Positions 1-57,076 are shown, numbered from the stretch's first letter. The stretch: DNA of 64,000 bases from Kiritimatiellia bacterium (GCA_050950285.1 JBMNHG010000006.1:293167-357166), one strand, 5' to 3'. Translations and numbers: made by a program. Notes: a model not told the origin generated them from the sequence alone.

Positions 1-755
1 TCACAGCCGATGAAGAGGCCGCCGCAACCATCGTTGGAGGCATTCTCCAGGTCAAGGTTGCGGACGATCGTGCAGTTCTCGATCGTGGGGGTGTACATGG
101 CGAAGATGCCGCCGCCCCCGATGTGCCCTTGCACGCCGGTGCATTCGTTCGCCGCCACGAGGCACGAGCGGACGGCTCCCCCGTAGGCCGCGATGCCGCC
201 GCCCGCGCCACTTCCGCCATTGCCGCCAAGGGCCCGGCATCGGACCACGATGCATCCGTCGACGAGGCCGTTGCCGATGAAGATGCCGCCGCCGAAGCCT
301 TCGGCCGCCGTGCAGGCGGTGACGATGCACCGCTCGACGATGCCATCGTCCAGGCGCACGCCGCCGCCGTGGTCGCCGGCGGCGACCCAGCCATTCGTGA
401 CGGTGAAGCCGGAGACGACCGCGTCGGGGTGGCTCACGGCGAGCACGCGGACCTGGCCTTGTCCATCGAGAATCGTCGCTCCCGCGCCTTCGACGCTGCG
501 GAGCGCGATCGCGTCGGCGATCGAGATGGTCGAGGAAAGGCTGTAGGTGCCGTTCGTGACGAGCACGGTATCCGCGCCGTTCGCGGCGGCATACGAGACC
601 GCCGTCGCGACGTCGCCGCAGGCGTTCGCCCAGGAATCGTAGGGCGCCGCCGGAGCGGCGGCATTCGCGCGGACGTGCACGGTCGCGGCCAACGCCACGC
701 CTGTGCCCGACAGGAACACCATGGAAAGAACAAGCGCTTTGACTCTGCTGATCAT
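1..755 (-). CDS. Secreted right-handed parallel beta-helix (pectin-lyase-fold) repeat protein, partial (3' end runs off the window)
   Basis: Not in the ORF track because it has no stop in the window. Manual translation from ATG at 755 (GAGGT RBS upstream) gives MISRVKALVLSMVFLSGTGVALAATVHVRANAAAPAAPYDSWANA...DTVLVTNGTY...GFTVTNG...GGGVRL...GGGIF...IENCTIVRN: a signal peptide followed by GGG-I/C-x-I repeats typical of beta-helix surface proteins. Confidence 0.8.
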   Translation of the reverse strand, partial: MISRVKALVLSMVFLSGTGVALAATVHVRANAAAPAAPYDSWANACGDVATAVSYAAANGADTVLVTNGTYSLSSTISIADAIALRSVEGAGATILDGQGQVRVLAVSHPDAVVSGFTVTNGWVAAGDHGGGVRLDDGIVERCIVTACTAAEGFGGGIFIGNGLVDGCIVVRCRALGGNGGSGAGGGIAAYGGAVRSCLVAANECTGVQGHIGGGGIFAMYTPTIENCTIVRNLDLENASNDGCGGLFIGC

Positions 756-2131: not shown

Positions 2132-4996
2132 CTAGAATTCGAACGCGCCCCACGCGGAGGGATCGACGCGGGCTTCGGAGGGGATGTCGGAGACCTCCTG
2201 TCCGCCGGCGTCGAAGAGGTACTGGCGCCGGACGACGCGGGTGCCGGAGGGGTCGCCGAAGAGGACGCCCGCATCGCATCGGCGGATTCCGCCCTGGAAG
2301 TCCCCGCGCGGCTCGCCGAGGGCTTCCCAGGGGAGGTCGATGCGGACGCTGTAGCCGCCGGCGCGTCGATGGACGTCGATCTGCGCGTCTGCGATCTCCT
2401 CGATGCCGGCGATGGAGATGCGTCCCGCCGGGGAGACGAACTCCACGGGGGGCTCCGTCGCGGCGGGGTCGACAAAGCGGTAGCGCATCGCCACGACGCG
2501 GTCCTCCATCGGGGCGACGACGATGCGCACGTCGCCGGGGGCGGGGCTGGTTCGCGCGGGGTCCGCGCCTGGATCGCCCTCCCAGCGGAAATCCAGCGCG
2601 TCGCCCGAATGGAACAGCGTGTGGGGGGCGTCTCCGAGGTTCTCGAAGGGCGTGGGGTCCGTCACGTCGTAATGGAGCGTCAGCCGGGACGGCGTCCAGC
2701 CGATGGCGAAGCGCGCGACTGGCTCGTCGTGCGGCATGGGGTACTCCGCGAGCTTCCACCAGTCGCGTCGAAGGCCGAACCCGCCTGCGCAGATGGCCCG
2801 GGCGGGCCCGCGTTCCGCCAGCGGGACGTCCTCGAGGGGCGGAGGAGGTTCGGCGATCGCGATGCTGCCGCCCTCCAGTACGCAGATGGAATCGACGCCG
2901 CGCAGTTCGAGGAGGTTCAGCGAATCCTTGCCCTCGATGAGGTGGGGGATCCCGTCGATGTCGCCGAACCAGCCATAGAAGCACTCGTCCCCGAGCGAAT
3001 GGTGCGAGACATCGAGCCCGCGCACCGCCGCCGGCAGGTCTTGCATCGCGGGGTTCACGCGCATGTCGCCGAAGAGTTCCTGTACGAAGAGACCGTCCTG
3101 CGTGAAGAGGTAGCGGGTGCCCTTGTTGCCGTTGAGGAGCATCAGCCCGCCTGGTCCGGCGGAGGAGAAGCCCTCGATGCCCAGCGTGTGGCGGAGTTCG
3201 CCGCGGCGCGGGATGGGGGAGTTGTGCGTGTTCGACGGGTAGGGGTTGGGGTAGGTCCACAGCGTTTTCCCCTCGCGCGAGATGGCGCCGAAGAGATTGT
3301 CGGGCGAGCCTTGGTTGCCGCAACCGCCGCGATTGACGACGAACGATCGGGCGTCGGGCGCGACGGACAGCGAGCAGACGGCGAGCAGCTCCTCAGGAAG
3401 CGGGATGATTTCGGCGGTTTCGAAGTCGTAGTGGAGGTCGGCGTCGGGCGTCAGGACGGCAAGGGCGCGACGGTCGGCGGTGCGCAGCACGATTTCGAGG
3501 TTTGGGCCCATGCGAAGGCACCATTCCGCGCCGTAGGCGAAGCGGTCGGAGACGGTTTTCACCCCATCCTGCCAAAGGAAGACGCCGCCTGAGGGGTCGA
3601 TGCCGTATTCGATGCGGGGGCGGAGCACGTCGCCGTCGATTTCGCCGACGAAGGTGCACTTGCTGCAGGCCTGGTAGTCCGCGAGGAGGAAGGTCCGTCC
3701 TTGCCAGGTTTGCACGGTGGACGGACAAGGCGGCTTCATGGGGAGTTCGGGATGGGCGTCGGGGTCGAAGAGGATTGCGTCCAGTTCGGCTTCGCTTCGG
3801 TCTTCGTTCCAGCGGAAGCGCATTCCGGAGTAGTAGGCGAAGTCGCCCAGCAGGCTGCCTCCGCCGCCGTAGAAGGGGGTTCCGACGAACTCGCGCACCA
3901 GGGCGCCCTCGCGCGTCCAGACGGAGACGCGCTTGGGGAGGAGGGTGGTTTCCGCGACCCAGACCTGTCCGCGGGCATCGATGGCGACGTCGCCGGGGTG
4001 GCCCATCGCCTCGGGGTCGTAGCGTCCTTCGCGGCGTCCGCCGGGTTTGCCGATGGTGCGGAGGAAGGCGCCGTCGGGCGAGAAGACGCGGATGCACTGG
4101 TCTTGGGCGTTGGTCGCGACGCGATAGAGGTTGCCGTCCGCGTCCGTGGCGACGCCGCGGAGGAGTTTGGCGGAGGGGCGGCGGATGCGCTCCTCGAGGG
4201 TTTCGATGGGTTCGTCGTGGCTCCAGAGCGCGGTATGGCGGTCGAAATAGGAAACGCGGTTCTGGTCGGCAAAGGCGACGGCGATGTGGCCGGGGTCGAG
4301 GAAGAGGCCGGCGATTCCGCGGAAGCGGGAGGAGTCCTCGCGGACGAAGGCGGAGTCGTGGAGGATGTGGCGGCGGGTGACCTCCCGGGGGTTCGGGATC
4401 CAGCGGTAGTGCCGGATGTCGAAGCGGTTCACGGCCATGCGTTCGCCCATCCAGCCGCCTTCTCCGGCGACGAAGAGCGTGTCGCCTTCGGTGCAGATGG
4501 CGTCGGCGCCGGAGAGGCCGAGCCAGAGCGTGCCCCAGAGCTTGTTGCCGTCGAGGTCGCATTGGATGATGGAGTCGCCGGCTTCGGCGATGCGGCAGCC
4601 GAGGTAGACGTGGGTGTCGTCCGCATAGACGCACCACGGGGCGGCGTGGTCCGAGAGCCAGCCGCCGGCGCCGCTGGGACGGAGGTTCCAGCCGCCGGGG
4701 CGGGTGTGCTGCTTCCAGGGGGTGGAGCCGGGCGAATAGAAGGCGCCGAGCCAGTGGGCGGTGATTTCCCGGTCGCGCGCGATGCCGCGCCAGCGGTAGT
4801 CGCCTGCGGGGACGGGGATGCCGCGATCGTCTCGGCCGTCCCAGGGTTCGGAGACGTCGCCCGCCGGACGCGGCGCGTCGGAAACGAGGTTCCGGACGCG
4901 CCGTCCGGACGGGTCTTCGACGACGAGGGTCACGCGCGCGTCGCGGGGAAGCGCGTAGGCGAGCGCCGCGGCGGCGAAAAGGCCGGGGAGGATCAT
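2132..4996 (-). CDS. Uncharacterised FlgD-Ig-like / NHL-type beta-propeller / CBM9-like protein (paralogue 1, 954 aa)
   Basis: The ATG at 4996 overlaps the upstream stop (TGATG). Motifs: VTLVVEDPSGRRVRNL...WDGRDDRGIPVPAGDYRW (FlgD-Ig-like), PGDVAIDARGQVWVAE and PKRVSVW (NHL-like), C-terminal LHYDVTDPTPFEN...GDALDFRW...YSVRIDLPW (CBM9/DOMON-like). Confidence 0.8.
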   Translation of the reverse strand: MILPGLFAAAALAYALPRDARVTLVVEDPSGRRVRNLVSDAPRPAGDVSEPWDGRDDRGIPVPAGDYRWRGIARDREITAHWLGAFYSPGSTPWKQHTRPGGWNLRPSGAGGWLSDHAAPWCVYADDTHVYLGCRIAEAGDSIIQCDLDGNKLWGTLWLGLSGADAICTEGDTLFVAGEGGWMGERMAVNRFDIRHYRWIPNPREVTRRHILHDSAFVREDSSRFRGIAGLFLDPGHIAVAFADQNRVSYFDRHTALWSHDEPIETLEERIRRPSAKLLRGVATDADGNLYRVATNAQDQCIRVFSPDGAFLRTIGKPGGRREGRYDPEAMGHPGDVAIDARGQVWVAETTLLPKRVSVWTREGALVREFVGTPFYGGGGSLLGDFAYYSGMRFRWNEDRSEAELDAILFDPDAHPELPMKPPCPSTVQTWQGRTFLLADYQACSKCTFVGEIDGDVLRPRIEYGIDPSGGVFLWQDGVKTVSDRFAYGAEWCLRMGPNLEIVLRTADRRALAVLTPDADLHYDFETAEIIPLPEELLAVCSLSVAPDARSFVVNRGGCGNQGSPDNLFGAISREGKTLWTYPNPYPSNTHNSPIPRRGELRHTLGIEGFSSAGPGGLMLLNGNKGTRYLFTQDGLFVQELFGDMRVNPAMQDLPAAVRGLDVSHHSLGDECFYGWFGDIDGIPHLIEGKDSLNLLELRGVDSICVLEGGSIAIAEPPPPLEDVPLAERGPARAICAGGFGLRRDWWKLAEYPMPHDEPVARFAIGWTPSRLTLHYDVTDPTPFENLGDAPHTLFHSGDALDFRWEGDPGADPARTSPAPGDVRIVVAPMEDRVVAMRYRFVDPAATEPPVEFVSPAGRISIAGIEEIADAQIDVHRRAGGYSVRIDLPWEALGEPRGDFQGGIRRCDAGVLFGDPSGTRVVRRQYLFDAGGQEVSDIPSEARVDPSAWGAFEF

Positions 4997-7900
4997 CAGC
5001 GGAGGATGAACACGAGGCCGTTCGGGCGGAGTTTGTAGCGCACGATGACGATGCCGCTTCCGCCCTTCCCGATGCCGGAGTTCATGTTGGCGGTGCCGCC
5101 TTCGCCGCCCCCGCCGGAGCCGGTTCCGGCGGTGCCGTCGGTGCCGCTGGCGAGGACGGCGGAGGATCCGGATCCGCTGACGTAGTATCCGCCATGGCCG
5201 CCGAGTTCGGCGCCGCCGCCCATGCCGCCGGAACCGGCGCTGTTGGAGAAGACGCCGCCGCCGCCCCCGCCTGCCGCGTAGTAGCGGGCTTCGCCGAGGA
5301 AGGCGCATGCGATGGCGTCGCCGCCGGAGCCGGAGATGCCGAGCGTGGCGTCCCCGCCCGCGCCGCCCGCGCCGCCGCCGCCGCCGGCCTTGCCGTTGGT
5401 GTCGTTGCCGTTCCAGATTCCGATACCGCCGCCGTGGCCCTGCGCGGCGTCGCCCGCGCCGCCCGCGACCGTCGATCCGGAGATGTTGTATGGGCCGCAA
5501 CCGCCGCCGCCCGATCCGCCGGGGCGACCGGCGCTGCTCCATGCGGAGCCGCCGCCGCCGCCGCCGAGCGCGGTGAAGCCGTTGAAGGTCGTGGGGCTTC
5601 CGTCCGCGCCGGCGGCCTGTCCGCCGGCACCGACCACGACGGGGTACTCGCCGGGCAGGAGGAGGACTTCGTCGAGGAGGAGGACGCCTCCCGCGCCGCC
5701 GCCGCCGCCGCGGACGTTGTTGGCCTTGCCGCCCGCGCCGCCGCCGCCCACGAGGAGGGCTTGCACGCTCATCGGCTCGTAGGCGGTGAAGGTGCCGTTG
5801 GTGGGATAGGTGTGGGTCATCCACTTCACGCCATCGCGGACGGCGAGCTTCTCGCCGCCAGAGGCCTCGCGGATGACCTCCTTGTGGAAATAGCCGTCGT
5901 CGACGCGGCAGACGAGGATCACCATGCCGGAGCCGCCGGTGCCTCCCGCGCCGGCGTTGATGTGGAACCACGAGTTGCAGCCGTTGCCGCCCGCGCCCGT
6001 GCCGGGGGTTCCGTCGGCGCCGGACTTCGCATAGGGCGAGTCCTGTCCGCCGGACGCGCCGCCCGCGCCGCCTGCGCCATAGAGGACGCCATCGTCGAAG
6101 TACGGACACGGCACGCCCGCGCCGCCCGCGCCCGCGGACGAGGCGGCATGGCCACCCGCGCCGCCCGCGCCCGCGCCGCCGCCGCCATAGCCGACGTTGT
6201 TGCCGGCATCGACGCCCGTGCCGCCCGCGAAGAAGCCGTCGGCTTCGGCGCCATCGGGATGGTTGTAGTTTCCGCCGCCGCCGGGGCCGCCTGCGGTCGC
6301 CGATGCGGACTGCCACGCACCCGCGCCGCCGCCGATCGCCTGGAGGCCGAAGGCGTAGGAACTGCCGCCGTTTTCATTCTGCGCGCCGCCCGCGCCGACC
6401 GTGATGACGTAGGGCCGCTTCTCCACGACGACCGCGTCGTTCGAGACAACCGCGCCGCCGCCGCCGCCGCCGCCGCCGCGGGAGAGATAGCCGCCGGATG
6501 CGTAGACCCCCGCATCCCTCGGGAGCGATTCCTTCGCGATGCCGCAACCGCCGCCGCCGCCGCCGCCGCCCACGAGGAAGACCTTCACGGGACCGGCCGA
6601 CGGCGGGGTGAAGAGGCCGGATCCCGGCGTCGAGAAGGAATAGGCAAGCGAACCGTCCGGAAGCACGCGGACGGTGGGCTGGTTCGGGAAATCCTCCGGG
6701 TCGAAGGTGTCGGGGTAGAAGCGGACGAGCACCGCGCCGCAGCCGCCCGCGCCGCCCCAGCCCGCCGAAACGTGCACGTAGGAACTGCCGCCGGCGCCGC
6801 CCTGGCCGTAGCCGTCCGCGCCGGGCGCGCCGCAGTTCAGGACGGGGTCGTTCACTTCGTAGCCGCCGCGGCCTCCATTGCCGCCCGCGCCATACCCCGA
6901 GCTGTTTTCGAGGAAGGGGCACGGAACGCCCGCGCCGCCCGCGCCGAAGGAAGAGGTGGTCGCGTCGCCGCCCGCGCCGCCCGCGCCGCCGCCGCCGCCG
7001 CCGTAGCCCGGCGCATTGTAGGCGGACGAATAGCCCGCGCCACCGGCGTAGCCCTGCGTGGTGCCGCCGACGATCGCCGCGGCGGCGCCATCCGTCCACG
7101 AGTCGCTGCCGTTCATCGCACCCGCGCCGCCGCCGCTGGCGCCCGAGGTGGCATTGAGCCCGATGCGGCCGCCGTGGCCGCCTCCGATCGCCTCGAAGCC
7201 GAAGGCAGACGATGGTCCGCCGTTCTGGTTCTGGGCTCCGCCCGCGCCGACCACGACGGGATAGTCGGTGTCCGCGGCGATGTCGATGCCCGTCTTGTGC
7301 AGGACGCCGCCGCCGCCGCCACCACCGCCGGCACGCACGGAATAGCCGCCGCCGACCTGCTGTCCGCCGCCCGTGAGCGTCTCCATGTAGTTGCCGCCGC
7401 CGCCGCCGCCGCCGCCCACGAGGAAGACGTCCGCCCTGCCGGGGATGGAGGTGCGGAAACAGCCGTTCGAAAGGAAGGTATACACAACCGACCCATCGGG
7501 GAGGACCGCCGTCTTCTCGGGTTCGTAGGCGACGGGCGAGCCCTCCTCCTCCACCGCCTCGAGCGGCGCCAGGCCGTAGCGGAGGTCGAACGAGTTGTCC
7601 TCGGCCGCGAGCGCGACGCCGACCTGCCACTGCCAGGTCAGATGCGCCGTGCGCACGGCGAGCACGTTGTTGCCGGCCAGGAGATGCACGGGCGCCGTGA
7701 CGCCCGTCGCATTCGTCGAGAGAACCTCCTCCCCGTTGAGCCAGACCGTCGTATGGAGCGTGCCCGAGAAGGCGGCCGTGGACAGCGAGAGGGAGGCGTC
7801 GGTCGCCCTCTCCGCGTAGACGTAGCGGAGCGCATAGGCCGCGCCAAAGACGGGATAGGTTGAAACCGCCGAAAGGTCGAGCGAGTCGGAGTTGTCGCCG

Positions 7901-9237
7901 CCCACGTAGCCGACGCTCGGGAAATAGTCCTGCCAGGATGGCGTGCGGGCCGCGTTTGCCGCCTCGATCGCCGCGAAGTCGTCGCCGGCTTCGATGGCGG
8001 CCTCGGTCTCGCATGCGGCGTTCTCGGGGAGGAACGCCCAATGGCCGCCCGCGTTCGACCAGGGCACCGCGACCGGCGTCGAGACGCGCCAGGGCGCGGG
8101 CACGTGGACGGATGCCGTGCGCGCGGCGCCGGACGCGGGCGTCGCGGTGACGGAGAGGGTCGTGGGCGCGTACTCGGCGGGCCCTTCGAGCGTGAAATCG
8201 ACGGACAGCCCGTTCGTCGCGGCTGCGGCCGTTTCGCTCCAGCCCCTCGGAAGCGCGAGGGAGAACGACGCGGACGCTGGAGCCGATTCGCCGGGACGCT
8301 CCACCCAGTTTGCCCGGAGGTGGAAGGCGTAGAGGCCAGGGGCCGCGCCCGCGCCCGTCGCGCGGAGGACGTGCGAAAGCCCGGCGGCGTTGCCGTTCGC
8401 GGCGGCGTCGAGCTGCGCCTGCAAACGGTTGGCGACGAGCCAGGCGGAGGCGTCGGCATGCTGGAAGGCATCGAGGAACGACCGGGCGATGCCGATGTGC
8501 CCGGCGGCGTTCGGATGGACCGTGTCGCTCGTGACGTGGAACCCGGGGGCGAGCGTACGGCCGACGGCGAGGAGGTTCGTCTGGTTCTCCCAGACGGGGA
8601 TGTAGTGGACCGACAGGGCCGGTTGAATCGCGAGACAGGTTGCGTCCGTGGCGAGTTCGGCCACGAGTTCCTGGATCTTCGCGTTCAGCTTCTGGATGAG
8701 CAGGTTCTTCGGGCCGTCCGGATCCTCCGTGCACGGGGGGACCGACCCGAGGTAGAGGTCGAGCGCGGTCGTGCGGCGGACGAGGTTCGTCACGAGCTGG
8801 TAGTAGTTGTCCTTGAACGCCGCAATGGATTCCGGCGTGTCGGCGGTCGAAGGCGCAAGGACGTTGTTCATGCCGAGCAGGACGACCAGCCGGTCCGTCG
8901 GCTGGTCGAGGTTCGGCCCCACGTACACGCCCGGCACATCGAGCGTGGTGGTCGCGTTCTCGCGCGATTCGAACTCGACGTTCCTCCAGCTCTCGACCGT
9001 CTGGCCACTGCCGCCGAGCGCGACGACAACCGGGCGATCGGCCTCCACCCTTGTCGCGGCGTATGCGTCGTCCAGCTGGTTCGCGTATCCATGGGCCGAA
9101 ATCCGGCTTTGCCCCGTGATGGAATCGCCGATGAAGACAATCCGCTCGGCCGCCAACGCCGAGGCGGCGACCCCCATCGCAACCGCGATGCCTGCAAACA
9201 CCTTGAACCGCTTGCCGAAACTCCGTCTCTTTTCCAT
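4996..9237 (-). CDS. Secreted SGNH/GDSL esterase fused to three glycine-rich repeat modules, ending in the tail PNGLVFILR (1413 aa)
   Basis: GGAGGA RBS; signal peptide ending ...AASALA; SGNH blocks IVFIGDSIT, GGSG, LGMNN and DTVHPNAAGH; three repeats of (V/L)FLVGGGGGGG...GGGGGGV...Y.(V/I)xVGAGG...GxGGxGxV(I/L)V. Confidence 0.85.
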   Translation of the reverse strand: MEKRRSFGKRFKVFAGIAVAMGVAASALAAERIVFIGDSITGQSRISAHGYANQLDDAYAATRVEADRPVVVALGGSGQTVESWRNVEFESRENATTTLDVPGVYVGPNLDQPTDRLVVLLGMNNVLAPSTADTPESIAAFKDNYYQLVTNLVRRTTALDLYLGSVPPCTEDPDGPKNLLIQKLNAKIQELVAELATDATCLAIQPALSVHYIPVWENQTNLLAVGRTLAPGFHVTSDTVHPNAAGHIGIARSFLDAFQHADASAWLVANRLQAQLDAAANGNAAGLSHVLRATGAGAAPGLYAFHLRANWVERPGESAPASASFSLALPRGWSETAAAATNGLSVDFTLEGPAEYAPTTLSVTATPASGAARTASVHVPAPWRVSTPVAVPWSNAGGHWAFLPENAACETEAAIEAGDDFAAIEAANAARTPSWQDYFPSVGYVGGDNSDSLDLSAVSTYPVFGAAYALRYVYAERATDASLSLSTAAFSGTLHTTVWLNGEEVLSTNATGVTAPVHLLAGNNVLAVRTAHLTWQWQVGVALAAEDNSFDLRYGLAPLEAVEEEGSPVAYEPEKTAVLPDGSVVYTFLSNGCFRTSIPGRADVFLVGGGGGGGGNYMETLTGGGQQVGGGYSVRAGGGGGGGGVLHKTGIDIAADTDYPVVVGAGGAQNQNGGPSSAFGFEAIGGGHGGRIGLNATSGASGGGAGAMNGSDSWTDGAAAAIVGGTTQGYAGGAGYSSAYNAPGYGGGGGGAGGAGGDATTSSFGAGGAGVPCPFLENSSGYGAGGNGGRGGYEVNDPVLNCGAPGADGYGQGGAGGSSYVHVSAGWGGAGGCGAVLVRFYPDTFDPEDFPNQPTVRVLPDGSLAYSFSTPGSGLFTPPSAGPVKVFLVGGGGGGGGCGIAKESLPRDAGVYASGGYLSRGGGGGGGGAVVSNDAVVVEKRPYVITVGAGGAQNENGGSSYAFGLQAIGGGAGAWQSASATAGGPGGGGNYNHPDGAEADGFFAGGTGVDAGNNVGYGGGGAGAGGAGGHAASSAGAGGAGVPCPYFDDGVLYGAGGAGGASGGQDSPYAKSGADGTPGTGAGGNGCNSWFHINAGAGGTGGSGMVILVCRVDDGYFHKEVIREASGGEKLAVRDGVKWMTHTYPTNGTFTAYEPMSVQALLVGGGGAGGKANNVRGGGGGAGGVLLLDEVLLLPGEYPVVVGAGGQAAGADGSPTTFNGFTALGGGGGGSAWSSAGRPGGSGGGGCGPYNISGSTVAGGAGDAAQGHGGGIGIWNGNDTNGKAGGGGGAGGAGGDATLGISGSGGDAIACAFLGEARYYAAGGGGGGVFSNSAGSGGMGGGAELGGHGGYYVSGSGSSAVLASGTDGTAGTGSGGGGEGGTANMNSGIGKGGSGIVIVRYKLRPNGLVFILR

Positions 9238-26057: not shown

Positions 26058-29000
26058 CTAGAAGTCGTCGAGCTCGAAGTCGTCGAGCAGATCCGCCGCC
26101 GCGTCGTCCGCAAGAAGCGACGCGGGGTCGCCCAGCGTGGCGGTCTCCTTGTCTTTCCCCGGGAAGAGGGCCCAGCCCCACAGGTCGGGTTCGAGGCGCG
26201 CCTCGCTCGGGGCGTCCGCGATGGTGGACGTCGCGGGGTTCGCCCAGCAGGAGCGGCGCAGCACGCTCGCGGCCGTGGAATCGGTCTCCAGGATCCCCCA
26301 GTCGAGGCGGATGCGGCGCGCCGTTTTCGGGTCGAGCCCGATGGCCTCGAGCGGGACGCGCAGCTCCACCTCGTAGCCGATGGCCGGTCCCGCGGGGTTC
26401 GCGGGGTTGCCCGAAAGGGGCGCGTGCGTGAACGAGGCGCCCTCCAGGCGGCGCACGGAATCGAAGGACACGCTTGCCACGGGGGAGACCACGTCCATCC
26501 GCTCCTCCTCCGGGGCGTCCGGGCGCACGGCGTCGTATACCACCACGTTGGGCGTCCCCCCGGCGTCGAAGGCGGCGAGGATGCGCATGTCGCCCTCGAC
26601 GGGCGCGCGGCGCGCGGGGTCGGCGCCGCCGTCAAGGCCGAGCGACAGGTCCACGGCGGCGCCGGTCTTGAAGAGGCGGTTCCACTCCGAACCGGCGTTC
26701 CGGAAGGGGCCGGCGCGGAGCACGCGGTAGCGGGCGTAGAGGTTCCGCCCGTCGTGGGCGAGCTGGAAGGAGACGTCGCGGTCCGGGCAGGCGGGGTCGA
26801 AGGGGAGCGAAACGGACGGCAGAAGCCGCCAGTCGGGCGAAGCGCCGTGGGAGGAGCTGTCGAAGGCGTCGAGGACGCGCGGCGTGCCGCGCGCCCGGTA
26901 GCGGGCCATGTCGCGCCGCCACGCGAGGGAGGCGGCGAGGTCGGCGTCGCCCACCCGCAACGTCCCGTCGAGGCGGCGGAAGCGGTCGAGCCCTTCCACG
27001 CGCACGACGCTGGCATGGTTGTGGCCGGCCACGGCGTAGAAGGCGCCGCTGGCGGAATCCTTCGCGAAGTAGGCCTGGAAGTGCTCCTGCCCGGCGGTCA
27101 CGTCGTCCAGTCTCATCCCCCGCTCGTGGTCGGCCATGCTCCACGCCACGCGGCGCCCGTCGCGCAGGTCGCGGAACAGGGAGCCCGCGAGAAGGCCGTC
27201 GGCAGTCCAGAGGTTCCACACGCCGAAGTTGGAGTGCACCACGAAGAACTCGCCCAGGTCGCCGGCGTCCGCGGTTTCGTGTCCGGCGACGCCGAACTGG
27301 CAGACCACCTGTCCGGGCGAATACGGGCCGCAATGGCGGTCGGGCCCGACGCCCGCCCCTTCGTTCGGGTAGCTCCAGCGCAGCGCGCCGTCGGGGGCGA
27401 AGACCGCGTCGGGCGCGTCCGCGCCGTCGCCGAAGCGGTAGTACGAGCCGTCGTCCAGGCGGTACACCGCGGAGTTCCCGCGGGTGTCGGCGAGAGGGGC
27501 GGGAAGCGGATCCTCGCGATAGACGGGTTCGCCGCCGGGGAGGAACTCGGCCACGGAGAAGCGGAGGCCGCCACCGCAGATGGAGAGGTCGCGCGCGAAA
27601 TCCGACAGCGAAGCGGAGCGTCCGGCCAAAGGGGTGAAACGCACTTCGCCGGGCGAAGGCGTGCCGTCGCCGTCGCGGTCGGTCCACGCGAAACGGAAGG
27701 ACTGGAGCGGCTGGAAGTCCACCAGCGCATGGATGGCGGGATCGCGGAGCGGGGCAAAGGCGTCGGCGGCGCCCAGCGCGGCGACGCGCCGCAGTCGATT
27801 CTCCTCGTAGAGGTAGACGATCGCGCTGCGCTGGCTGGTGAATTCCGCGCGGGTCACGAGGTAGCAGAGCCCGTTCGTGCGCACGGGCACTTCGCCGGCG
27901 CGCCAGCCGTCGCCGGGCGGCCAGGTGAGGTTCTTGAGGCGCGAGGTCCCGCCCGCCCAATCGAGTTCGAATTCGAGGGGGCCGTAGAAGAGGCGCGAGC
28001 GGTCGCCGGGGTCGAGCACGCCGCCGCCGCCGTACGCGGTGGGGCCGAGCACTTCGTGGAGGAAATCCCCCGACGCGCTCCAGCAGGAGACGCGCTTGGG
28101 CCAGTAGTCGGCATCCACGCACCAGAGCTTGCCCTCCGAATCGACGGCGATGGCCGCAAGATCGCCGAGGCGGCGCGGATTCCAGGGGCCGACCTCGTAG
28201 CCGCCGGGCTCGCCCACGTCGCGCAGGAAGGCGCCGGAAGGTGAAAAGACGCGCACCACGCGGCGGGCGGGCGCGGCGTCGAAGACGTACAGGTTGCCTG
28301 CGGCGTCGCAGGCGAGCGGGCCGGGATGGAGCACGTCGATGTCGAGCGGGAGGGCGGCATCGGCATCCGGGGCGATGCGCGCGACACGGCCTTCGGTCAC
28401 GGCATAGAGCGAGCCGTCGGGCGCGTAGGCGAGCTCGCGGGGCGAAGGAACCGGAAGCTCGCGGAGAAGTTCGCCCGTTGCGCCGTCGTACCACTCGATG
28501 CGGGCGGAGACGGCCGGATCGACGGGCGGCTCGCCGCCAAGGGGCGCAAGCGGCGCCACGCCGAAGATGCGGCAGCGGGTGGCATCGAGCCCGAGGCGGT
28601 CTTTCGCGCAACTGCCTTCGCGGGTGTCGGCGGCGAATTGCGAAACCACGCGCAGGCGCACGGCGCGGGAGACCACGTTGCTGCCGAAGTCGACCATCTC
28701 GTCGAGATAGCGGGCGAGGGCGTTGTGCCCCTCGAAGCCGGAATGATCCATGCGGCGGCGCGACGTGAAGGCCGCGACCTGCGTCCATCCGGCATCGCCG
28801 AAGGGGTCGGGGGCGTCCTCCCCCGTAAAGACGTCCACCTCCGTGCGTTCGCCGTCCACCTCTTTCACGGCGAGGCCGCAGAAGGTCTTGGGCTCGTCCC
28901 ACAGCATCGCGTAGATGGCGGGGTCTTCGGGCGAGAGCGGCGTGTCGCGCCCGGCGGTCCACGTGCCGTCGTCTGCGGGTGCGCCGGAGTTCACGCGGAC

Positions 29001-30957
29001 GGTCGCGGATGCGGCGAGGTTCGCGAAGCGGCGGCGGAGGAGGCGGAGTCCCTCGACCTCGCCGAACCAGGTGGGGCCGCTTTCGACGTCGTCGAAAAGG
29101 TCGCCGATTTCGTCGTCCTCGCCGGTGGAGAAGGTCAGCAGCAACGCGCGGGCGAAGGTTCCGGGCGGGGCGGGGAAGACGTCCCACGCGGTGCCGGCGG
29201 AGGGTTCGAGGTCGATCCACTGCGAACGGTCGCCGGGGTCCGGCGGGAAGGGGGCGTCGGGCTTGGACACGGAGAGGCGGACGGTGTAGTCGGCCCCGAG
29301 GGGCATGGGGAGCACGACGGAGCCGATGGGGACGGGCTGGTGGAAGGCCACGAGCAGGTGCTGGCGCGATTCGGGGCCGCGGGTGGAGGCGAGCTGGACG
29401 AGCCCGGCGCCGCCGGGATGGCCGTAGCCGGGGGGATCGCCCTTGAGGCGGAGGAGCCGCAGGAAGTCGCCGCGCGGGTCGGGGACGATTTCGTAGGGGA
29501 CGCGGGGTTTGCGCGGCTCGCGGTAGGTGGGGTCGCAGTGCGCGATGTCGACGGACTCCCAGCCGCATGCGCCGGCCAGAAGCGACGGGCCCGCATCCAC
29601 GGAGAGCGCCACGACGCCGTCGCGGGCGGCGAGGCCGCGTGCGCCGCGGCGGCGGGTGGCGGACTCCTGCGCGAGCACGAGCGACTTCCATTCGCGCGTG
29701 GCGATGTCCACGCTCCAGATGCGGTCGGCGCCCTCGTCCTGCGCGCCGTAGTGGCCGGAACCGGCATGCTCCACGAAGACGTTGCGGCCGTCCGTGGCCA
29801 TGTGGCGTCCTGCGGACCAGGCCGCGAAGGAGTGGATGCCCCAGAGCTTCCGGCCCGTGAGGTCGCAGGCTGCGAAGCCCACGCCGCTCTCGGGGACGGG
29901 TGCGCCGAAGAAGACGAAATCCCCTGCCGCGCAGGCGCCGCACGGGGGGGTGTGGTCGGCAAGCCATCCGCCGGGACCGCCGGGACCGTTCAGCCAGGCG
30001 GAGTTCCCGGGGTGGAGCTGCGAGACGTTGGGGTAGACCGTGAACTCGTACGAGAGCTCCGGCTCGGGCCCGGTGATGGCCTTCCACGCGTAGTCGCCGG
30101 CGGAGACGGGGCGGCCCAGCTCGTCGGAGAGATCCCAGGGCACGTCCGTGCGGCCGGCGGCGCGGGGTTCGCGGGCGACGAGGTTGCGGACGCGCCGCCC
30201 CTGCGCGTCGTCCACCACCACGGTAAGGAGGCCGTCCGCGGGAAGCTCCACCGGAATCGCGAAGGCGGGGGGTGGAGGCGGCTCGGCGGTGGCGGGGAGT
30301 TCGCCGGGGGCGAGCGGGGAGAAGACGCGCAGCGTGGACAACTCCGCCACCTGCGAGGCCCCGCCCTGCGGCGTGAGGGCGCGGAGGACGCGCAGCCGGA
30401 GGCCGCGGGTCGACAGCGGGGGGGTCGAAGACCACCCAGCGCCCGCCGCCGGCGGCAGGGGCGGGGCGAAGCGTCTCGAAGGCGGCGTCCGGCACGCGCT
30501 TCCACTCGTCGCCCACGCCGGCGAGCGGGGTCACGCCGGAAGGGCCTTCGAAGACGTCGAAGCGGAGGTCCGCGAAGTTGTCCACCAGGAAGAGCGCGGC
30601 GATGGCCTGCGGTTCGTCCCAGGCAAGGACAAGCCACTGGGCGTTTTTGTCGCTGATTTCGGGCTCGAGAATGCGCCCGGCGGGGCCGACGCCGGCGGAT
30701 TTCCACGCGCCGGCGCCGCGCGCGACGTCGATGGCCCGGAAAACGCCGCCGCCGAAGGAGTCGGGGGCGTGATACTCCTGCTTCGCCCGAACCCCCGCCA
30801 GCGGCGCGATGTTCGCGAATCGCGCGTCGCCGCACGTCCAGGCGCCGTCGTCGTCCGGCGCGAACGCCGCGACATCCAGCGCCGCCGCTCCCGCGGGCGA
30901 AAGGACCAGGGACCACACGCAAAGGGAAAGGGACGCGAGAAGGGACAGGGCTTTCAT
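26058..30957 (-). CDS. Uncharacterised secreted FlgD-Ig / beta-propeller / CBM9-like protein (paralogue 2, ~1632 aa), split by a +1 frameshift in a G7 tract at 30418-30424
   Basis: The N-terminus MKALSLLASLSLCVWSLVLSPAGA is in one frame and the body (ORF 26058..30350) in another. Removing one G joins them as RWVVFDPPLSTRGLRLRVLRAL. Shares motifs with paralogues 1 and 3. Confidence 0.75.
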
Positions 30958-31121: not shown

Positions 31122-34100
31122 CTATCGCATGAGCAGGATGGTGCCGGCGGGCGGATTGAAGCGTTCGTAGCACCCGAGGTCGACGTACAGTCCGCCCGGG
31201 CCCTTCCGGATGCGCCCGGCGCCGTCGAGATCGAGCGTGCCGAAGGCGTTGGCGTTCACGCCCGCGTCGACGGCCGGGCTGCCGGCGCTCGCCAGACGGG
31301 CGTTGAAGGCGGGATCGGTCGCAGGAACGGCGATGTTCGCGAAGCCGGGGTCGGCATCGATCACGTTCGAGCTGTTCGCGGCGTCGTAGCCTTCGCCGGC
31401 ACCGCAGTGGTAGACGATCGTATCGTGCAGGCGGAGGTTCGGCGCGCCGGAATCGCCCCAGCCCGAAGCGAAGGTGAGGGTCTCTTCGTCGCAGAGGATG
31501 GAGTTGTAGATGTGCATGCCGTGGTTGTCGCGGTTGCAGGCGCGCGCCGCGTATCCGCCGGTGTTGCCGACGAACGTGCAGTTGTGGACGTCCATCTTCC
31601 AGCTGTAGCCGAGGAACATGCAGCAGGGCGTGCTGTTGCCGGCGAAGAGCGAGTTCGAGATGCGCGGCATGCCGCCCGCCGTGTTGCTGATGCTGATGAG
31701 GCTGCCGCCGGAGTTGCCGATGAAGCGGCAGCGGTCGACTTCGATGATGGAGGGCAGGTGGTGGCGCCCCCAGATGAAGATCGCGGAGGAGGAATAGCCG
31801 TCGCCCATGCCGGTGTCCGGCACGTGGTTGCCCTGGAAGAGGCAGTCCGCGAGGAAGAAGCGGCCCGCCACCTCCGGACCGGCGAACTGGGCGACCGTGC
31901 CCTGGACCGACGTATTGCCGAGGAATTCGCAGCGGAAGGCGTGGAAATTCGAGTTGGTGTTCTTCTTGTGGGCGGTGACGCCGACGGCCGCGGCGACACG
32001 CGTCATCCCCGTGAAGCAGCAGTCCACGGCGCAGAGTTGCGAATCGTTGCGCATCGTCGCGCCGCCGCAGGCGTAGTTGCCGTTGTTCGCGTAGGACTGC
32101 GTGAAGAGCAGGTTCGTCATCGCGATGGTCGCCGCGTCGGCGCTGATGGCGGCTTCGGTGGATTCGCGGAGCCAGAGGTTCTCGAGGCCGGCCGCGTGCT
32201 TGGGCGCGGAAAGAGCGATCAGGTTCGCCACGGCGTTGCCGCCGTCGAGGATGTGGCCGGCGCGGTCGACGTCGCCGGTGGCGTTGTAGCCTTGGAGCAG
32301 CAGGCCGTCGGGGACAAGCGGGAAGGTCTCGCCGGACGCGGCGCCGTAGGTGCCGGGGAGAATGCGGATGGTATCGCCGACGGTGGACTCCGTGATGGCG
32401 TGCGCGATGGTCTGGAAGGGGGTCTCGAGGGTTCCGTAGCCGTCGTCGTCGCCCAGCGCGGCATCGACGTACAGTGCGCCGGGGTATCCGACGACCTCGA
32501 GGGTCGTGGTGGAGGAGTCGCTCCCGGCGAAGCGGAATCCGATGCCGACGGTGACCGTCACCGTGTTCACTCCCGCGCCGCCGACGATGCGCAGCACGCC
32601 GTCGGAGACCGAATCCCCCGCGGCGATTTCCGCGGTTCCAACCCAGCCGATTTCGTTGGAGCCGGCGCCGGCGGCCTCGCCGGCGACGATGGGGATGGCG
32701 GCGGAGGCAACCGCGCCATCGGAATAGATCTTCACGGGGATGTCGTTGGTCGTGCCCTGGCGCACGTAGAGACGGGCGGGCCGGTCGAGCGTGACCCGCT
32801 TTTCGTGGAGATAGACGCCCACGGCAAGCGGATCGATCCCGACGGACGTTCCGCTTTCGGAGACGGCAACGATCATGCGTTCGCCGTCGCCCTGGGAGAG
32901 GGTTTCGGCGGCGGTGACGACCAGCGAGTTCGTCTCCGAGCCGGTCGTCCACGCGAGAGCGGGGGTTTCGGTGGAGAGGTCCGTTCCCAGGGAGACCGAA
33001 GCCTGGACGGGCGTGGCGGCCTCGGGGGCGGGGTTCACGCACACGGGGATCGCGATGGATTCGCCGACGAAGACATGGCGTATGACGCCGGGGGTGTAGA
33101 AGGAGACGGTGTCGGGGGCGCCGAAGCGGGACTCGTACGCGCCCAGGTCGACGACGGCATCGCCTTCGGCGCTGTAGGCGCGCGGCTTGCCCGCGAGGTC
33201 GAGCGCGTAGTTTGCGTCGATCGACGCGTTGTCGCCGATGTCGACCAGTTCGCTGTACGGCCAGAGGCGGTAGTCCGCGGCGCCGGGATTTGCGGCGTCG
33301 TAGGGCGCGACGTAGTCGGGCGTGAAGGCCGTCACGTTTGCACTGGAAGCGGTGTCGTAGAACGGATTGTAGGCGTCTGCGAGCGGGGTGTCGTAAACGT
33401 TGCAGTTCTGGAGCACGAGACGGGTCCCGTCCATCGAGTTCAGCTTCGCGGAGGAGGAGATGGAGAGGTTGCGCGCCGTGGTGATGGCGTGGTAGGCATC
33501 CGTGTGGAACACCGCGCCAACCTGGTCGAAGGTGCAGTTGCGGACATCGAGCTCCGCGTTGTAGAAGACATGCGCGACGCCCCAATCGCCGCAGTCGATG
33601 TCGTAGAAGAGCGAGTTGTAGACGTGCAGTTCGCCGCGGTTCCCGCCGAGGTAGGCGAAGGGGGCGGAGGCGTGGCGGAAGACGCAGCGGTCGACCCAGG
33701 TCTTCGCCCAGGGGCTGATCACGCCGTTTTCGAAGTAGTTGCCGCTGGAGTGGGGATCGCCCGTGGTGCGGTCCACGACGAGGTCGTCGAAGACGCAGCG
33801 GAGGATGCGGACAGGATCCTCGACGCTGCTGAAGCGGGTCTGCTGGAAGACGATCGGGCCGGTCTTGTCCAGGATGCCGCCGCCGCCGGTGATGTCGAGG
33901 TTCCGGAAGGTGCAGTCGGCAAGCGTCACGGGGCCCCGCGTGTAGATGCAGCGGAACCAGTACTGGCCGGAGGTGGTGACGTTCCGGAAGACGCAGTTCG
34001 TGAAGAGGAGGTCGGTCTGGTAGGTGTCGATCGAGAAGATGGCGCCGTCGTCGGAGGCGGCGTCCACGCCGTCGACGATGCAGTTCGCCATCGTGCCGAA

Positions 34101-35621
34101 CCAGGCGTTGCCGTCGACCGCGTAGTTGCCGGCGTTGGTGATGACGAGGCCCGACAGGAGGCCCGCGCCGTCCGGCGTGTCGGGGAAGGAGAAGCCGCCG
34201 GCGCCTCCGCAGTCGATCACCGTCGAGTCGGCGGGGGTGCGGGTCGCGCCGGCGACGCCGCGGATTTCGATGCCGTTCGGGGGGAGGATCGGGAAGGTTT
34301 CGCCGCTGGCGGCGCTGTAGAGGCCGGCGGCGATCTCGATGTCCATGCCGCCGTCCATGGCGAAAGCCGCGGCGGCGGAGATGGAGCGCAGCGGGAAGTC
34401 CGCGGAGCCGAGGTTGTCGTCGTCGCCGTCGGGCGAGACGTAGAGGGTGTCGCCCAGGGTCGAGACGGTGAGGGTGATCGTGGAGGTGCCGGTTTCCTCG
34501 AAGACGAAGTTGTTGCCGAGGGTGAGGAGGATGGTGGCGGTACCTTCGCTCACGCCCGTGAAGGCGACCGGGGCGGAGGAGGCGAAGGCACCGGAGGCGA
34601 TGGACCCGTCGCCCGACACGGCCACCGTGCCGGCGGAGGGGGTTCCTGCGGCAAGCGGGATGGCGCCGGGGGCCGCAAGCTCGGAATCGACGATCTGGAG
34701 CGTGCGGTTGACCGTCGCCCCGATGCCTACGCCGATGTTCGTACTGCCGACCAGGCGGACCTTGCGGGCGACGGATTCGATGGAAGCGGAACGGGGAAGC
34801 GCGCCAAGGGTGCTGGAGCCTTCGGAGAGCGTGATCGCGGCGTTGCCGGCGAGGGCGGAGGCGGCGACCGAGAGCGCGCCCTGGTCGCAGGCGCCGGCCG
34901 TGAAGGTCGCGACGTCCATGCCGCCGGCGGTGACATCCGCGCCGCCGAGAACGATGGAGGCGAGGGCGCTTGCGGGATTGGTCACCGCGAGGTCGGCGTA
35001 GAGGACGCCGGCCGCATGGTCGCTCGCGGAGAGGGTGAACGTCGCGGTTTCCGTCGCGTAAAGGCGCTTCGAGGCCGGCCAGATGGAGAAGACGGGCACG
35101 ACGGCGTTTTCGCCGTAGAGCCAGAACTCGCGGCAGCCGGCGCTGTGCGCGTAGGTGGAGAACGATTGCATCACCACGTAGCGGCCGACCTGCGGGGCGT
35201 CGGCCTCGATGTAGGTGGGGTCGTTCGTGTAGGGCAGCACGCCGGCGGAGGCAGGGGCATGCGAGGAAGGAAGCGCGGCGACATCGTCATAGGACGTCAC
35301 GGGCGCGTCGAGCACCCAGAACTTGTAGTCCTTCATGCTGTGGTCGCGGTCGCGCGGACGATAGCGGAAAGCGCGGATGGTACGGCGCGAGCCGAGATCG
35401 ATGCAGAACCATGCGTCCTGCCTCCAATCGCACTGCCACATGTCGGTTTCATCGCCATTGATGATGGCGGCGGCTCCTTGCCCGTCACCGTTGCCGCTGA
35501 CGGTAACCGTCCAATTCGTTTTGTCGGCGAACTCGGTATAGTCCCCCAGGGCTCCTCGGGAGAACGCCGGCGCCAGCAGGAGGGCGCAGGCCGCAAACGC
35601 AACGGCGATCGACTTGTTCAT
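31122..35621 (-). CDS. Large secreted protein: discoidin/F5-8C-like domain, Ig-like spacers and two DUF1565-type beta-helix units, ending in the tail PPAGTILLMR (1499 aa)
   Basis: Signal peptide MNKSIAVAFAACALLLAPAFSRG; AIINGDETDMW...WFCIDLG...FRYRPR (discoidin-like); twice LYV...GDDD..G....P...I..A...G.Y.AASGETFP; each unit closes with DLxG..R.......VDLG(A/C)YE. Confidence 0.82.
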   Translation of the reverse strand: MNKSIAVAFAACALLLAPAFSRGALGDYTEFADKTNWTVTVSGNGDGQGAAAIINGDETDMWQCDWRQDAWFCIDLGSRRTIRAFRYRPRDRDHSMKDYKFWVLDAPVTSYDDVAALPSSHAPASAGVLPYTNDPTYIEADAPQVGRYVVMQSFSTYAHSAGCREFWLYGENAVVPVFSIWPASKRLYATETATFTLSASDHAAGVLYADLAVTNPASALASIVLGGADVTAGGMDVATFTAGACDQGALSVAASALAGNAAITLSEGSSTLGALPRSASIESVARKVRLVGSTNIGVGIGATVNRTLQIVDSELAAPGAIPLAAGTPSAGTVAVSGDGSIASGAFASSAPVAFTGVSEGTATILLTLGNNFVFEETGTSTITLTVSTLGDTLYVSPDGDDDNLGSADFPLRSISAAAAFAMDGGMDIEIAAGLYSAASGETFPILPPNGIEIRGVAGATRTPADSTVIDCGGAGGFSFPDTPDGAGLLSGLVITNAGNYAVDGNAWFGTMANCIVDGVDAASDDGAIFSIDTYQTDLLFTNCVFRNVTTSGQYWFRCIYTRGPVTLADCTFRNLDITGGGGILDKTGPIVFQQTRFSSVEDPVRILRCVFDDLVVDRTTGDPHSSGNYFENGVISPWAKTWVDRCVFRHASAPFAYLGGNRGELHVYNSLFYDIDCGDWGVAHVFYNAELDVRNCTFDQVGAVFHTDAYHAITTARNLSISSSAKLNSMDGTRLVLQNCNVYDTPLADAYNPFYDTASSANVTAFTPDYVAPYDAANPGAADYRLWPYSELVDIGDNASIDANYALDLAGKPRAYSAEGDAVVDLGAYESRFGAPDTVSFYTPGVIRHVFVGESIAIPVCVNPAPEAATPVQASVSLGTDLSTETPALAWTTGSETNSLVVTAAETLSQGDGERMIVAVSESGTSVGIDPLAVGVYLHEKRVTLDRPARLYVRQGTTNDIPVKIYSDGAVASAAIPIVAGEAAGAGSNEIGWVGTAEIAAGDSVSDGVLRIVGGAGVNTVTVTVGIGFRFAGSDSSTTTLEVVGYPGALYVDAALGDDDGYGTLETPFQTIAHAITESTVGDTIRILPGTYGAASGETFPLVPDGLLLQGYNATGDVDRAGHILDGGNAVANLIALSAPKHAAGLENLWLRESTEAAISADAATIAMTNLLFTQSYANNGNYACGGATMRNDSQLCAVDCCFTGMTRVAAAVGVTAHKKNTNSNFHAFRCEFLGNTSVQGTVAQFAGPEVAGRFFLADCLFQGNHVPDTGMGDGYSSSAIFIWGRHHLPSIIEVDRCRFIGNSGGSLISISNTAGGMPRISNSLFAGNSTPCCMFLGYSWKMDVHNCTFVGNTGGYAARACNRDNHGMHIYNSILCDEETLTFASGWGDSGAPNLRLHDTIVYHCGAGEGYDAANSSNVIDADPGFANIAVPATDPAFNARLASAGSPAVDAGVNANAFGTLDLDGAGRIRKGPGGLYVDLGCYERFNPPAGTILLMR

Positions 35622-56994: not shown

Positions 56995-57076
56995 GGGCGA
57001 GTGGTGGAATCGGCAGACACGCAGGATTTAGGTTCCTGTTCCGAAAGGATTGCGGGTTCGACCCCCGCCTCGCCCA
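56995..57076 (+). tRNA. tRNA-Leu (anticodon TAG)
   Basis: Acceptor stem GGGCGAG/CTCGCCC plus discriminator A; D-arm GTGGAATCGGCAGACAC; anticodon arm CAGGA-TTTAGGT-TCCTG; long variable arm TCC-GAAA-GGA; T-arm GCGGG-TTCGACC-CCCGC; CCA not encoded. Confidence 0.95.

Follow-up and report, generated by a model that had tools for sequence, protein, structure and literature searches.

A seven-residue C-terminal tail on large secreted proteins of Kiritimatiellia as a candidate sorting signal

The window analyzed here, a stretch of 64,000 nucleotides from a Kiritimatiellia bacterium (GCA_050950285.1 JBMNHG010000006.1:293167-357166), encodes two large secreted proteins, cargo 1 and cargo 2, which end in the same kind of short tail: a glycine, one variable residue, four hydrophobic residues (h) and a terminal arginine (G-x-h-h-h-h-R-stop). 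A first-pass annotation made from the DNA alone had placed such tails at the ends of these two genes and regarded them as a candidate novel sorting signal, and both are found where it put them. The source genome (4-Mb, designated G000; contig positions are given as C2, C3, C4, C6, C8 and C10) carries two further tail genes next to the window:

4996..5025, minus strand: tail 1 with stop, P-N-G-L-V-F-I-L-R-stop, core heptamer 4999-5019
4996..9237, minus strand: cargo 1, 1,413 aa, secreted; SGNH-like N-terminal part, three Gly_rich_2 domains (Pfam), tail
31122..31154, minus strand: tail 2 with stop, P-P-A-G-T-I-L-L-M-R-stop, core heptamer 31125-31145
31122..35621, minus strand: cargo 2, 1,499 aa, secreted; F5/F8 type C, DUF1565, β-helix, choice-of-anchor Q NF041518, tail
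1..722, minus strand: 5' part of a third tail gene (1,226 aa; G000 C6:290208-293888), with its tail left of the window
C6:285253-288888, outside the window: fourth tail gene, next after the C6:290208-293888 gene

The SGNH-type motifs of cargo 1 were recognized by eye only, with no Pfam match for SGNH, and the choice-of-anchor Q domain of cargo 2 stands just upstream of tail 2. With the last 12 residues removed, the two proteins show no BLAST similarity, in agreement with the earlier view that they are unrelated apart from the tail. In a scan of the last 60 residues of both proteins with the NCBIfam models the tail remained unmatched, only choice-of-anchor Q upstream of it being recognized, and no model for the tail came up among all proteins scanned.

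Copies of the tail and their cargo

Gene calls for G000 were made with a purpose-built hexamer model, which gave 2,445 genes, 2,440 of them complete. The tail, defined by the pattern [GA][TLFMSA]hhhh[RK]$, is present on 69 of the 2,440 complete proteins (about 3%), and nine near-misses bring the working set to 78; the membrane protein C2:837877, which matches a loose pattern, was excluded before these counts. The regular expression proposed in the first-pass annotation matches 24 of the 2,440 C-termini and none at each of 30 shifted positions, and a looser one gives 57 C-terminal matches versus 0-2 at the shifted positions, which carries the motif well beyond the two proteins of the window. 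Counted back from the last residue (-1), glycine occupies position -7 in 61/69 tails, threonine position -6 in 55/69 and arginine position -1 in 65/69; G(-7) together with R/K(-1) is the most constant part, and the upstream proline is common, but not fixed (-9 in 24/69, -10 in 15/69). There is no P-E-P in the tail, no transmembrane length and no basic cluster. Since the 69 tails are written in 65 distinct 24-nt codings, they are not a DNA repeat.

Tail proteins are long (median 1,051 aa versus 349 aa), and the tail is borne by 41 of the 246 proteins of at least 900 aa. Among proteins of at least 400 aa, 60 of 66 tail proteins pass a crude purpose-built signal-peptide heuristic, which also passes 31% of the other large proteins (295/937), so that by this measure the tail is enriched among exported proteins, a point that the first-pass annotation had proposed to test. 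The 78 tail proteins form 38 BLAST groups, with 274 of 3,003 pairs similar, and the tail is found behind 43 unrelated terminal-domain groups. It follows the cargo domain after a spacer of 3-6 residues. All 24 G000 proteins ending in choice-of-anchor Q and all six ending in a Gly-rich domain bear it, and many cargos are β-helix or autotransporter-repeat proteins. A search of G000 for internal tail copies, as a possible fused acceptor, returned seven scattered matches and no family.

Several other kinds of tail protein were observed. A tail-bearing family of 160-217 aa with no Pfam match adjoins Rhs-repeat or Rhs-like genes (L019:1196-1831, which is G000 C2:213195, and C4:171587, C8:804907, C10:19313 and C6:56027); its members are possibly export adaptors. 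In genome G095, loci L046 and L056 encode secreted micro-proteins of roughly 70-100 residues in which a signal peptide and the tail enclose little besides two LDTR-like repeats. In seven proteins (P0020, P0023, P0029, P0034, P0045, P0091 and P0100) a single frame joins an extracytoplasmic function (ECF) sigma factor to a transmembrane segment, an internal stretch resembling a signal peptide, Gly-rich domains and the tail.

Taxonomic range and exchange with other C-terminal domains

A strict DNA pattern was run over 151 genomes of the class, with the reversed pattern as a control. It matches 47 times in G000, 30 in G085, 29 in G058 and 14 in G074, and 0-2 times in most of the 151 genomes, the controls giving 0-3. 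In a phylum sample, two families of the window's order are positive in 12/12 (f4) and 2/3 (f48) genomes and a third in 1/15 (f2), while none of the 201 genomes from other classes exceeds three matches, which is the control level. Several families of a single class have the tail in abundance, and the other classes stay at background level; from the NCBI names on P0013 and P0020, together with the GTDB matches below, this class is probably Kiritimatiellia. A scan of GTDB with a choice-of-anchor Q end plus relaxed tail as the query matched at least 121 loci; the 80 matches listed with their taxonomy are nearly all from Kiritimatiellia, Verrucomicrobiota, Lentisphaerae, the PVC (Planctomycetes-Verrucomicrobia-Chlamydiae) group or unnamed bacteria, except for L258, L277 (out of frame) and L310.

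Among the matches listed, 120 of 122 lie in the reading frame and have a stop directly behind them, and the tail alignment omits L282 (misframed) and L270 (stop). In these 120 matches position -6, left unconstrained in the scan pattern, is T, M, A, S or V (T in 46), and position -3, likewise unconstrained, is S, G, N, R, Q or T in at least 76; position -4, limited by the pattern to hydrophobic codons, is F in 72, position -2 is F, the aromatic residue, in 20, and position -1 is R, K, Q or H. Position -3 is hydrophobic in 63/63 tails of G000 and polar in 6/19 tails of G058 (in the 1.28 Mb, about 44% of that genome, used for gene-level comparisons), so the tail has lineage dialects. A locus of genome G330 (L145:219-13901) holds giant paralogues in tandem whose tails are degenerate, with N, Y or F as the last residue, and one canonical tail beside them.

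Homologous cargo may carry other C-terminal domains in place of the tail. The 267-aa tail protein P0001 has two homologues, P0003 and P0004 (46% and 42% identical over 93-100% of its length), which end at the same point in PEP-CTERM, and their P-E-P-S/A-x-h-h-h-h-G is aligned on the P-P-A-G-T-V-F-I-L-R of P0001, so that the tail is in register with the first ten PEP-CTERM residues; position 4 of PEP-CTERM is G in 17/82 sequences and position 5 is T in 38/82. Neither P0001 nor P0002 has a PEP-type NCBIfam match. Among the 150 best matches of a P0001-family profile in a 50% library, 84 end in PEP-CTERM, six in the tail and seven in an element that we call FFR (by regular expression), with the share of PEP-CTERM inflated because the profile contained PEP-CTERM columns; the remaining 53 include, by eye, about nine more FFR-type, about six T9SS-type (type IX secretion system) and four dockerin-like ends. 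Likewise, the G000 protein C2:969232 has a last domain behind which PEP-CTERM stands in giant proteins from family f11, which is tail-free (loci L150 and L151; 31-32% identity, E 3e-11 and 8e-7). Homologues of the Gly-rich end of cargo 1 (120 compared) carry the tail in 33 cases and PF18962 (T9SS type A) in four, and many end right at the domain boundary.

Where tails are numerous, PEP-CTERM tends to be scarce (Spearman -0.68 across 36 genomes and -0.65 across 20 families), with a median PEP-CTERM count of one in 16 tail-bearing and 10 in 20 tail-free genomes, in a panel selected by tail status in which kin are not independent. G000 itself has five PF07589 places versus 69-78 tails. Exosortase is present in 5/5 genomes tested, three of them tail-rich, and these genomes have PEP-CTERM substrates of their own; no conserved PEP-CTERM "hub" protein was seen among the loci examined. 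The tail may have originated as a truncated PEP-CTERM (register match, inverse counts), or from a T9SS-like or FFR domain of which only the last strand was left.

The FFR element, about 60-70 residues ending in h-F-[R/K]-h, is found on about 25 secreted proteins (27 strict matches versus 0-6 at shifted positions; examples at G000 C6:168308-188187, C8:218944-240123, C2:596960, C2:613342 and others, and at L250:17149-17448). It occupies the PEP-CTERM slot on homologous cargo, has no NCBIfam match and in the ESM Atlas hits only unnamed verrucomicrobial clusters under 0.9, and it may be another undescribed sorting domain. Within G000, no BLAST match revealed a swap of tail and FFR element behind one terminal domain.

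Envelope machinery and possible readers of the tail

G000 encodes six secretins, scattered Tad genes, an exosortase, three Omp85 proteins and several unassigned outer-membrane barrels, together with two Verru_Chthon-like minor pilin cassettes (secretins, pilin cassettes and Tad genes at C6:58795, C3:423637, C8:287891, C8:673146, C2:827926, C2:27645 and C3:106956-111359). Clusters for Gsp (type II secretion) and PilQ (type IV filament) are common to G000, G085 and G058, and the PilQ cluster presumably resembles the Akkermansia pilus locus. No tail gene lies inside the listed pilin operons. One tail gene is situated 3 kb, or three genes, from an orphan type IV pilin (L020:1598-2578, G000 C3:511594), which itself ends tail-like in G-N-T-I-S-M-L-R. 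In G085, locus L099 was judged by eye to be a type III secretion-like gene cluster.

The first-pass annotation had looked to phylogenetic profiling for a co-occurring transporter or peptidase, and among the candidates profiled none tracks the tail. There were seven of them, six profiled in panels of 46 genomes and GspC-PDZ in five. Secretin B is absent from tail-rich G085, G074 and G095 and present in 19/26 genomes selected as tail-poor; secretin C has orthologues only within the window's order, including tail-free f2; secretin F is patchy among tail-rich and tail-poor genomes alike. The Tad ATPase (36/46 genomes) and a PilK-like cassette protein (38/46) occur in both groups, and GspC-PDZ was not found in G085 but is present in tail-free G007 and G036. 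The FlgD-Ig family occurs in 7/46 genomes, all tail-bearing, but was not found in seven tail-rich ones. This family of giant FlgD-Ig/propeller proteins has 25 members, nine of which adjoin a tail gene (versus 26 of 179 other large proteins), and is a frequent neighbor of tail genes, not a required partner. Three members lie in the window:

2132..4996, minus strand: FlgD-Ig/propeller family gene; its start overlaps the stop of cargo 1
26058..30350, minus strand: FlgD-Ig family gene, no tail, downstream of cargo 2
35934..40010, minus strand: FlgD-Ig family gene, no tail, upstream of cargo 2

The window also encodes, by annotation, GspE, LolA-like and VWA genes, and its sole RNA family match is a tRNA-Leu at 56995-57076. 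No recurrent gene appeared among the neighbors of single tails at 20 loci, about half of these matches lying off called gene ends. A comparison of G000 with the available part of G058 gave 492 reciprocal matches, of which 114 are envelope-like and 20 were scanned with Pfam, with no convincing acceptor; a dedicated partner could be in the uncompared rest of G058, or be hidden by degenerate tails in "negative" genomes.

On sequence grounds, we consider it very probable that the tail is a minimal C-terminal sorting or anchoring signal, G-x-h-h-x-h-[R/K/Q/H]-COOH. The sequences compared show that it is terminal and of fixed length, that its cargo is unrelated and has export signals, that it is restricted to one class and that it changes places with known anchors; together with the number of copies, these features sustain the lineage-specific export or anchoring signal of the first-pass annotation, for which a partner was not found. 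The N-terminal signal peptide would take the cargo across the inner membrane, and the free seven-residue end would bind a protein acceptor as an added β-strand. In this strand -4 and -2 would be buried, and the acceptor would recognize the basic residue and the carboxylate of the terminus by their set spacing from the glycine. We lean towards such a reading of the tail as a β-strand by a protein, to which the constant spacing between G and carboxylate, the h-h-polar-h pattern and a short linker rich in P and G point; the polar -3 across GTDB favors a terminal β-strand over a membrane stub and lends some weight to the strand first suggested for the window proteins, which is still an inference. 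Since tail and PEP-CTERM are exchanged on homologous cargo, the tail may have assumed the job of PEP-CTERM, i.e. large adhesin-like and sugar-binding proteins would be brought to, or held at, the cell surface. The failure of the candidate profiles, and the precedent of PilC/PilY1, in which a C-terminal β-strand of 6-10 residues is added to PilK-family pilins (PMC13533445), suggest that the acceptor would belong to a secretin-based machine common to the whole class, for which the Gsp type II secretion system and the PilQ type IV filament system would be the likeliest places, an identification that we offer only tentatively. The best overall reading, a sorting or docking strand read by a class-wide envelope machine, for which the inverse counts of tail and PEP-CTERM also speak, seems to us evenly poised, and the full proposal for Kiritimatiellia, a portable seven-residue linear tag read by strand addition in the general type II secretion or type IV filament machine, is more doubtful even than the choice of these two systems.

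A number of observations weigh against this strand-docking reading. None of the seven profiled candidates tracks the tail and no acceptor was found; every profile is weakened by the possibility that "tail-free" genomes hold degenerate tails like those of G330. Gsp (secretin A) and PilQ (secretin D) seem widespread, as judged from side matches. The four PilK/GspK-like proteins of G000, judged by eye, seem to supply their own last strand. The uniformly hydrophobic -3 of G000 would also fit a membrane-dipping stub, and the inverse relation to PEP-CTERM is limited by the make-up of its panel. Complex prediction with a 33-residue tail fragment and either GspD N0-N1 or a 188-aa protein of the PilQ cluster scored 0.00 in two runs without folded controls, and has no bearing either way.

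A rival view is that the tail is a cut-down PEP-CTERM acting in or on the membrane, whose hydrophobic residues and arginine dip into the periplasmic leaflet or which serves for lipid attachment by exosortase. The hydrophobic -3 of G000, the inverse counts, the register with PEP-CTERM positions 1-10, the G and T frequent at its positions 4 and 5 and the retention of exosortase in tail-rich genomes speak for it, but the tail lacks P-E-P, transmembrane length and basic cluster, its -3 is polar or charged in most of the GTDB matches listed and in part of the G058 tails, and exosortase already has its own substrates in these genomes; we regard this mechanism as unlikely, the PEP-CTERM origin and the present mechanism of the tail being separate questions. 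Less probable again is an isolated last strand of a T9SS-like C-terminal domain, caught by an unrecognized outer-membrane shuttle barrel. The T9SS type B end has the same G-to-R spacing as the tail, T9SS-type ends on homologous cargo (P0161, P0163, P0182) close in x-x-h-h-h-h-[K/R], and there are unassigned barrels in G000 that could act as the shuttle. The T9SS signal is reported to lie within the last 22 residues (PMC5445135). On the other side, T9SS signals require a folded domain, SprA and PorP/SprF were not found in G000 or G058 (a Prevotella control genome was positive), and neither PorV (B. thetaiotaomicron control positive) nor CHU_C (PF13585) was found in five genomes.

We give slightly less credit to the idea that the tail marks proteins for degradation in the periplasm, or serves as a capping strand for the last domain of the protein that bears it. 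PDZ proteases do read hydrophobic C-termini, and the last strand of the Gly-rich domain itself looks similar, but the tail stands behind 43 unrelated terminal-domain groups, homologues elsewhere stop at the domain boundary or carry sorting domains, and in a shallow, weak AlphaFold2 model (four sequences) residues 255-267 of P0001 are unpacked, with a predicted local distance difference test (pLDDT) score under 50. The least probable of these explanations is that the tail mimics the β-signal of the β-barrel assembly machinery (BAM), so that BamA translocates a passenger lacking its own barrel. The β-signal has a G-x-x-h-x-h spacing and a terminal aromatic residue that closes the β-barrel; the tail has this spacing shifted by one residue, many cargos are of β-helix or autotransporter-repeat type, and of the Omp85 proteins BamA alone was found in each of the five genomes tested. 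On the other hand, -2 is rarely aromatic and is followed by an extra basic residue, a single strand offers no barrel to close, and the same cargo does without such a strand where it ends in PEP-CTERM.

If a secretin-based machine does read the tag, it would load dozens of unrelated proteins of 1,000-2,300 residues without sortase, lipid anchor or folded signal domain, and secretin-based export would have a linear signal that is short and can be transferred. This would bear on the long-standing question of the type II secretion signal, and the tail would make a display tag of very small size. For the question of how cargo of the PEP-CTERM type gets across the outer membrane in Verrucomicrobiota, the tail offers a bait to synthesize, mutate and pull down. 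With a simple pattern, it also picks out most of the large surface proteins in a common class whose members live in gut, digesters and sediment and are mostly uncultured. The tail is apparently undescribed in print: no description of it was found in the literature searched, whose coverage excluded supplements and most subscription papers, and the same search found no paper naming both Kiritimatiellia and PEP-CTERM.

Comparison with known sorting systems

The earlier statement that the tail fits none of the known sorting systems holds for its lack of P-E-P, transmembrane length and basic cluster, but must be qualified by the register match with PEP-CTERM and the likeness to the last strand of T9SS domains. 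Compared with the BAM β-signal, the tail has an extra terminal basic residue, a mostly aliphatic -2 and no upstream barrel. Like the signal of the PEP-CTERM/exosortase system (TIGR02595, PF07589; PMC1569441), it occurs in many copies per genome on unrelated proteins with signal peptides and takes the same slot on homologous cargo, and the first ten positions are alike in register; the tail differs in having seven residues with a strictly free C-terminus, no P-E-P, no transmembrane helix, no basic cluster and no dedicated enzyme found. T9SS domains of type A (TIGR04183/PF18962) and type B (TIGR04131/PF13585; PMC12618676, PMC5445135) occupy the same slot and have a hydrophobic last strand closed by K/R, but they are folded over 70-100 residues, whereas the tail has no Ig-like domain and SprA, PorP/SprF and PorV were not found.

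In Haft's list of criteria for small tripartite C-terminal sorting signals (bioRxiv 10.1101/2023.06.07.544157), the tail agrees with criteria 1 and 2 (C-terminal position, many copies per genome), 6 and 7 (signal peptides, many otherwise dissimilar pairs) and 8 (homologues without the signal or with a different one), and departs from criteria 3, 4 and 5, its P being variable, T(-6) not constant, and only four hydrophobic positions and one basic residue being present. MYXO-CTERM and GlyGly-CTERM, lineage-specific C-terminal tags that dozens of surface proteins carry where a type II secretion system, which delivers them, is present, are similar in these respects, but they are tripartite, cleaved by intramembrane proteases and lipid-anchored (PMC11980579). 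PilC/PilY1 (PMC13533445) resembles the tail proteins in placing a short terminal strand on very large Sec-exported proteins, and G000 is rich in type IV filament systems; unlike PilC/PilY1, the tail is carried by about 78 unrelated cargos with no shared β-propeller, from genes outside the pilin operons, in a genome whose PilK-like proteins appear, by eye, to keep their own last strand.

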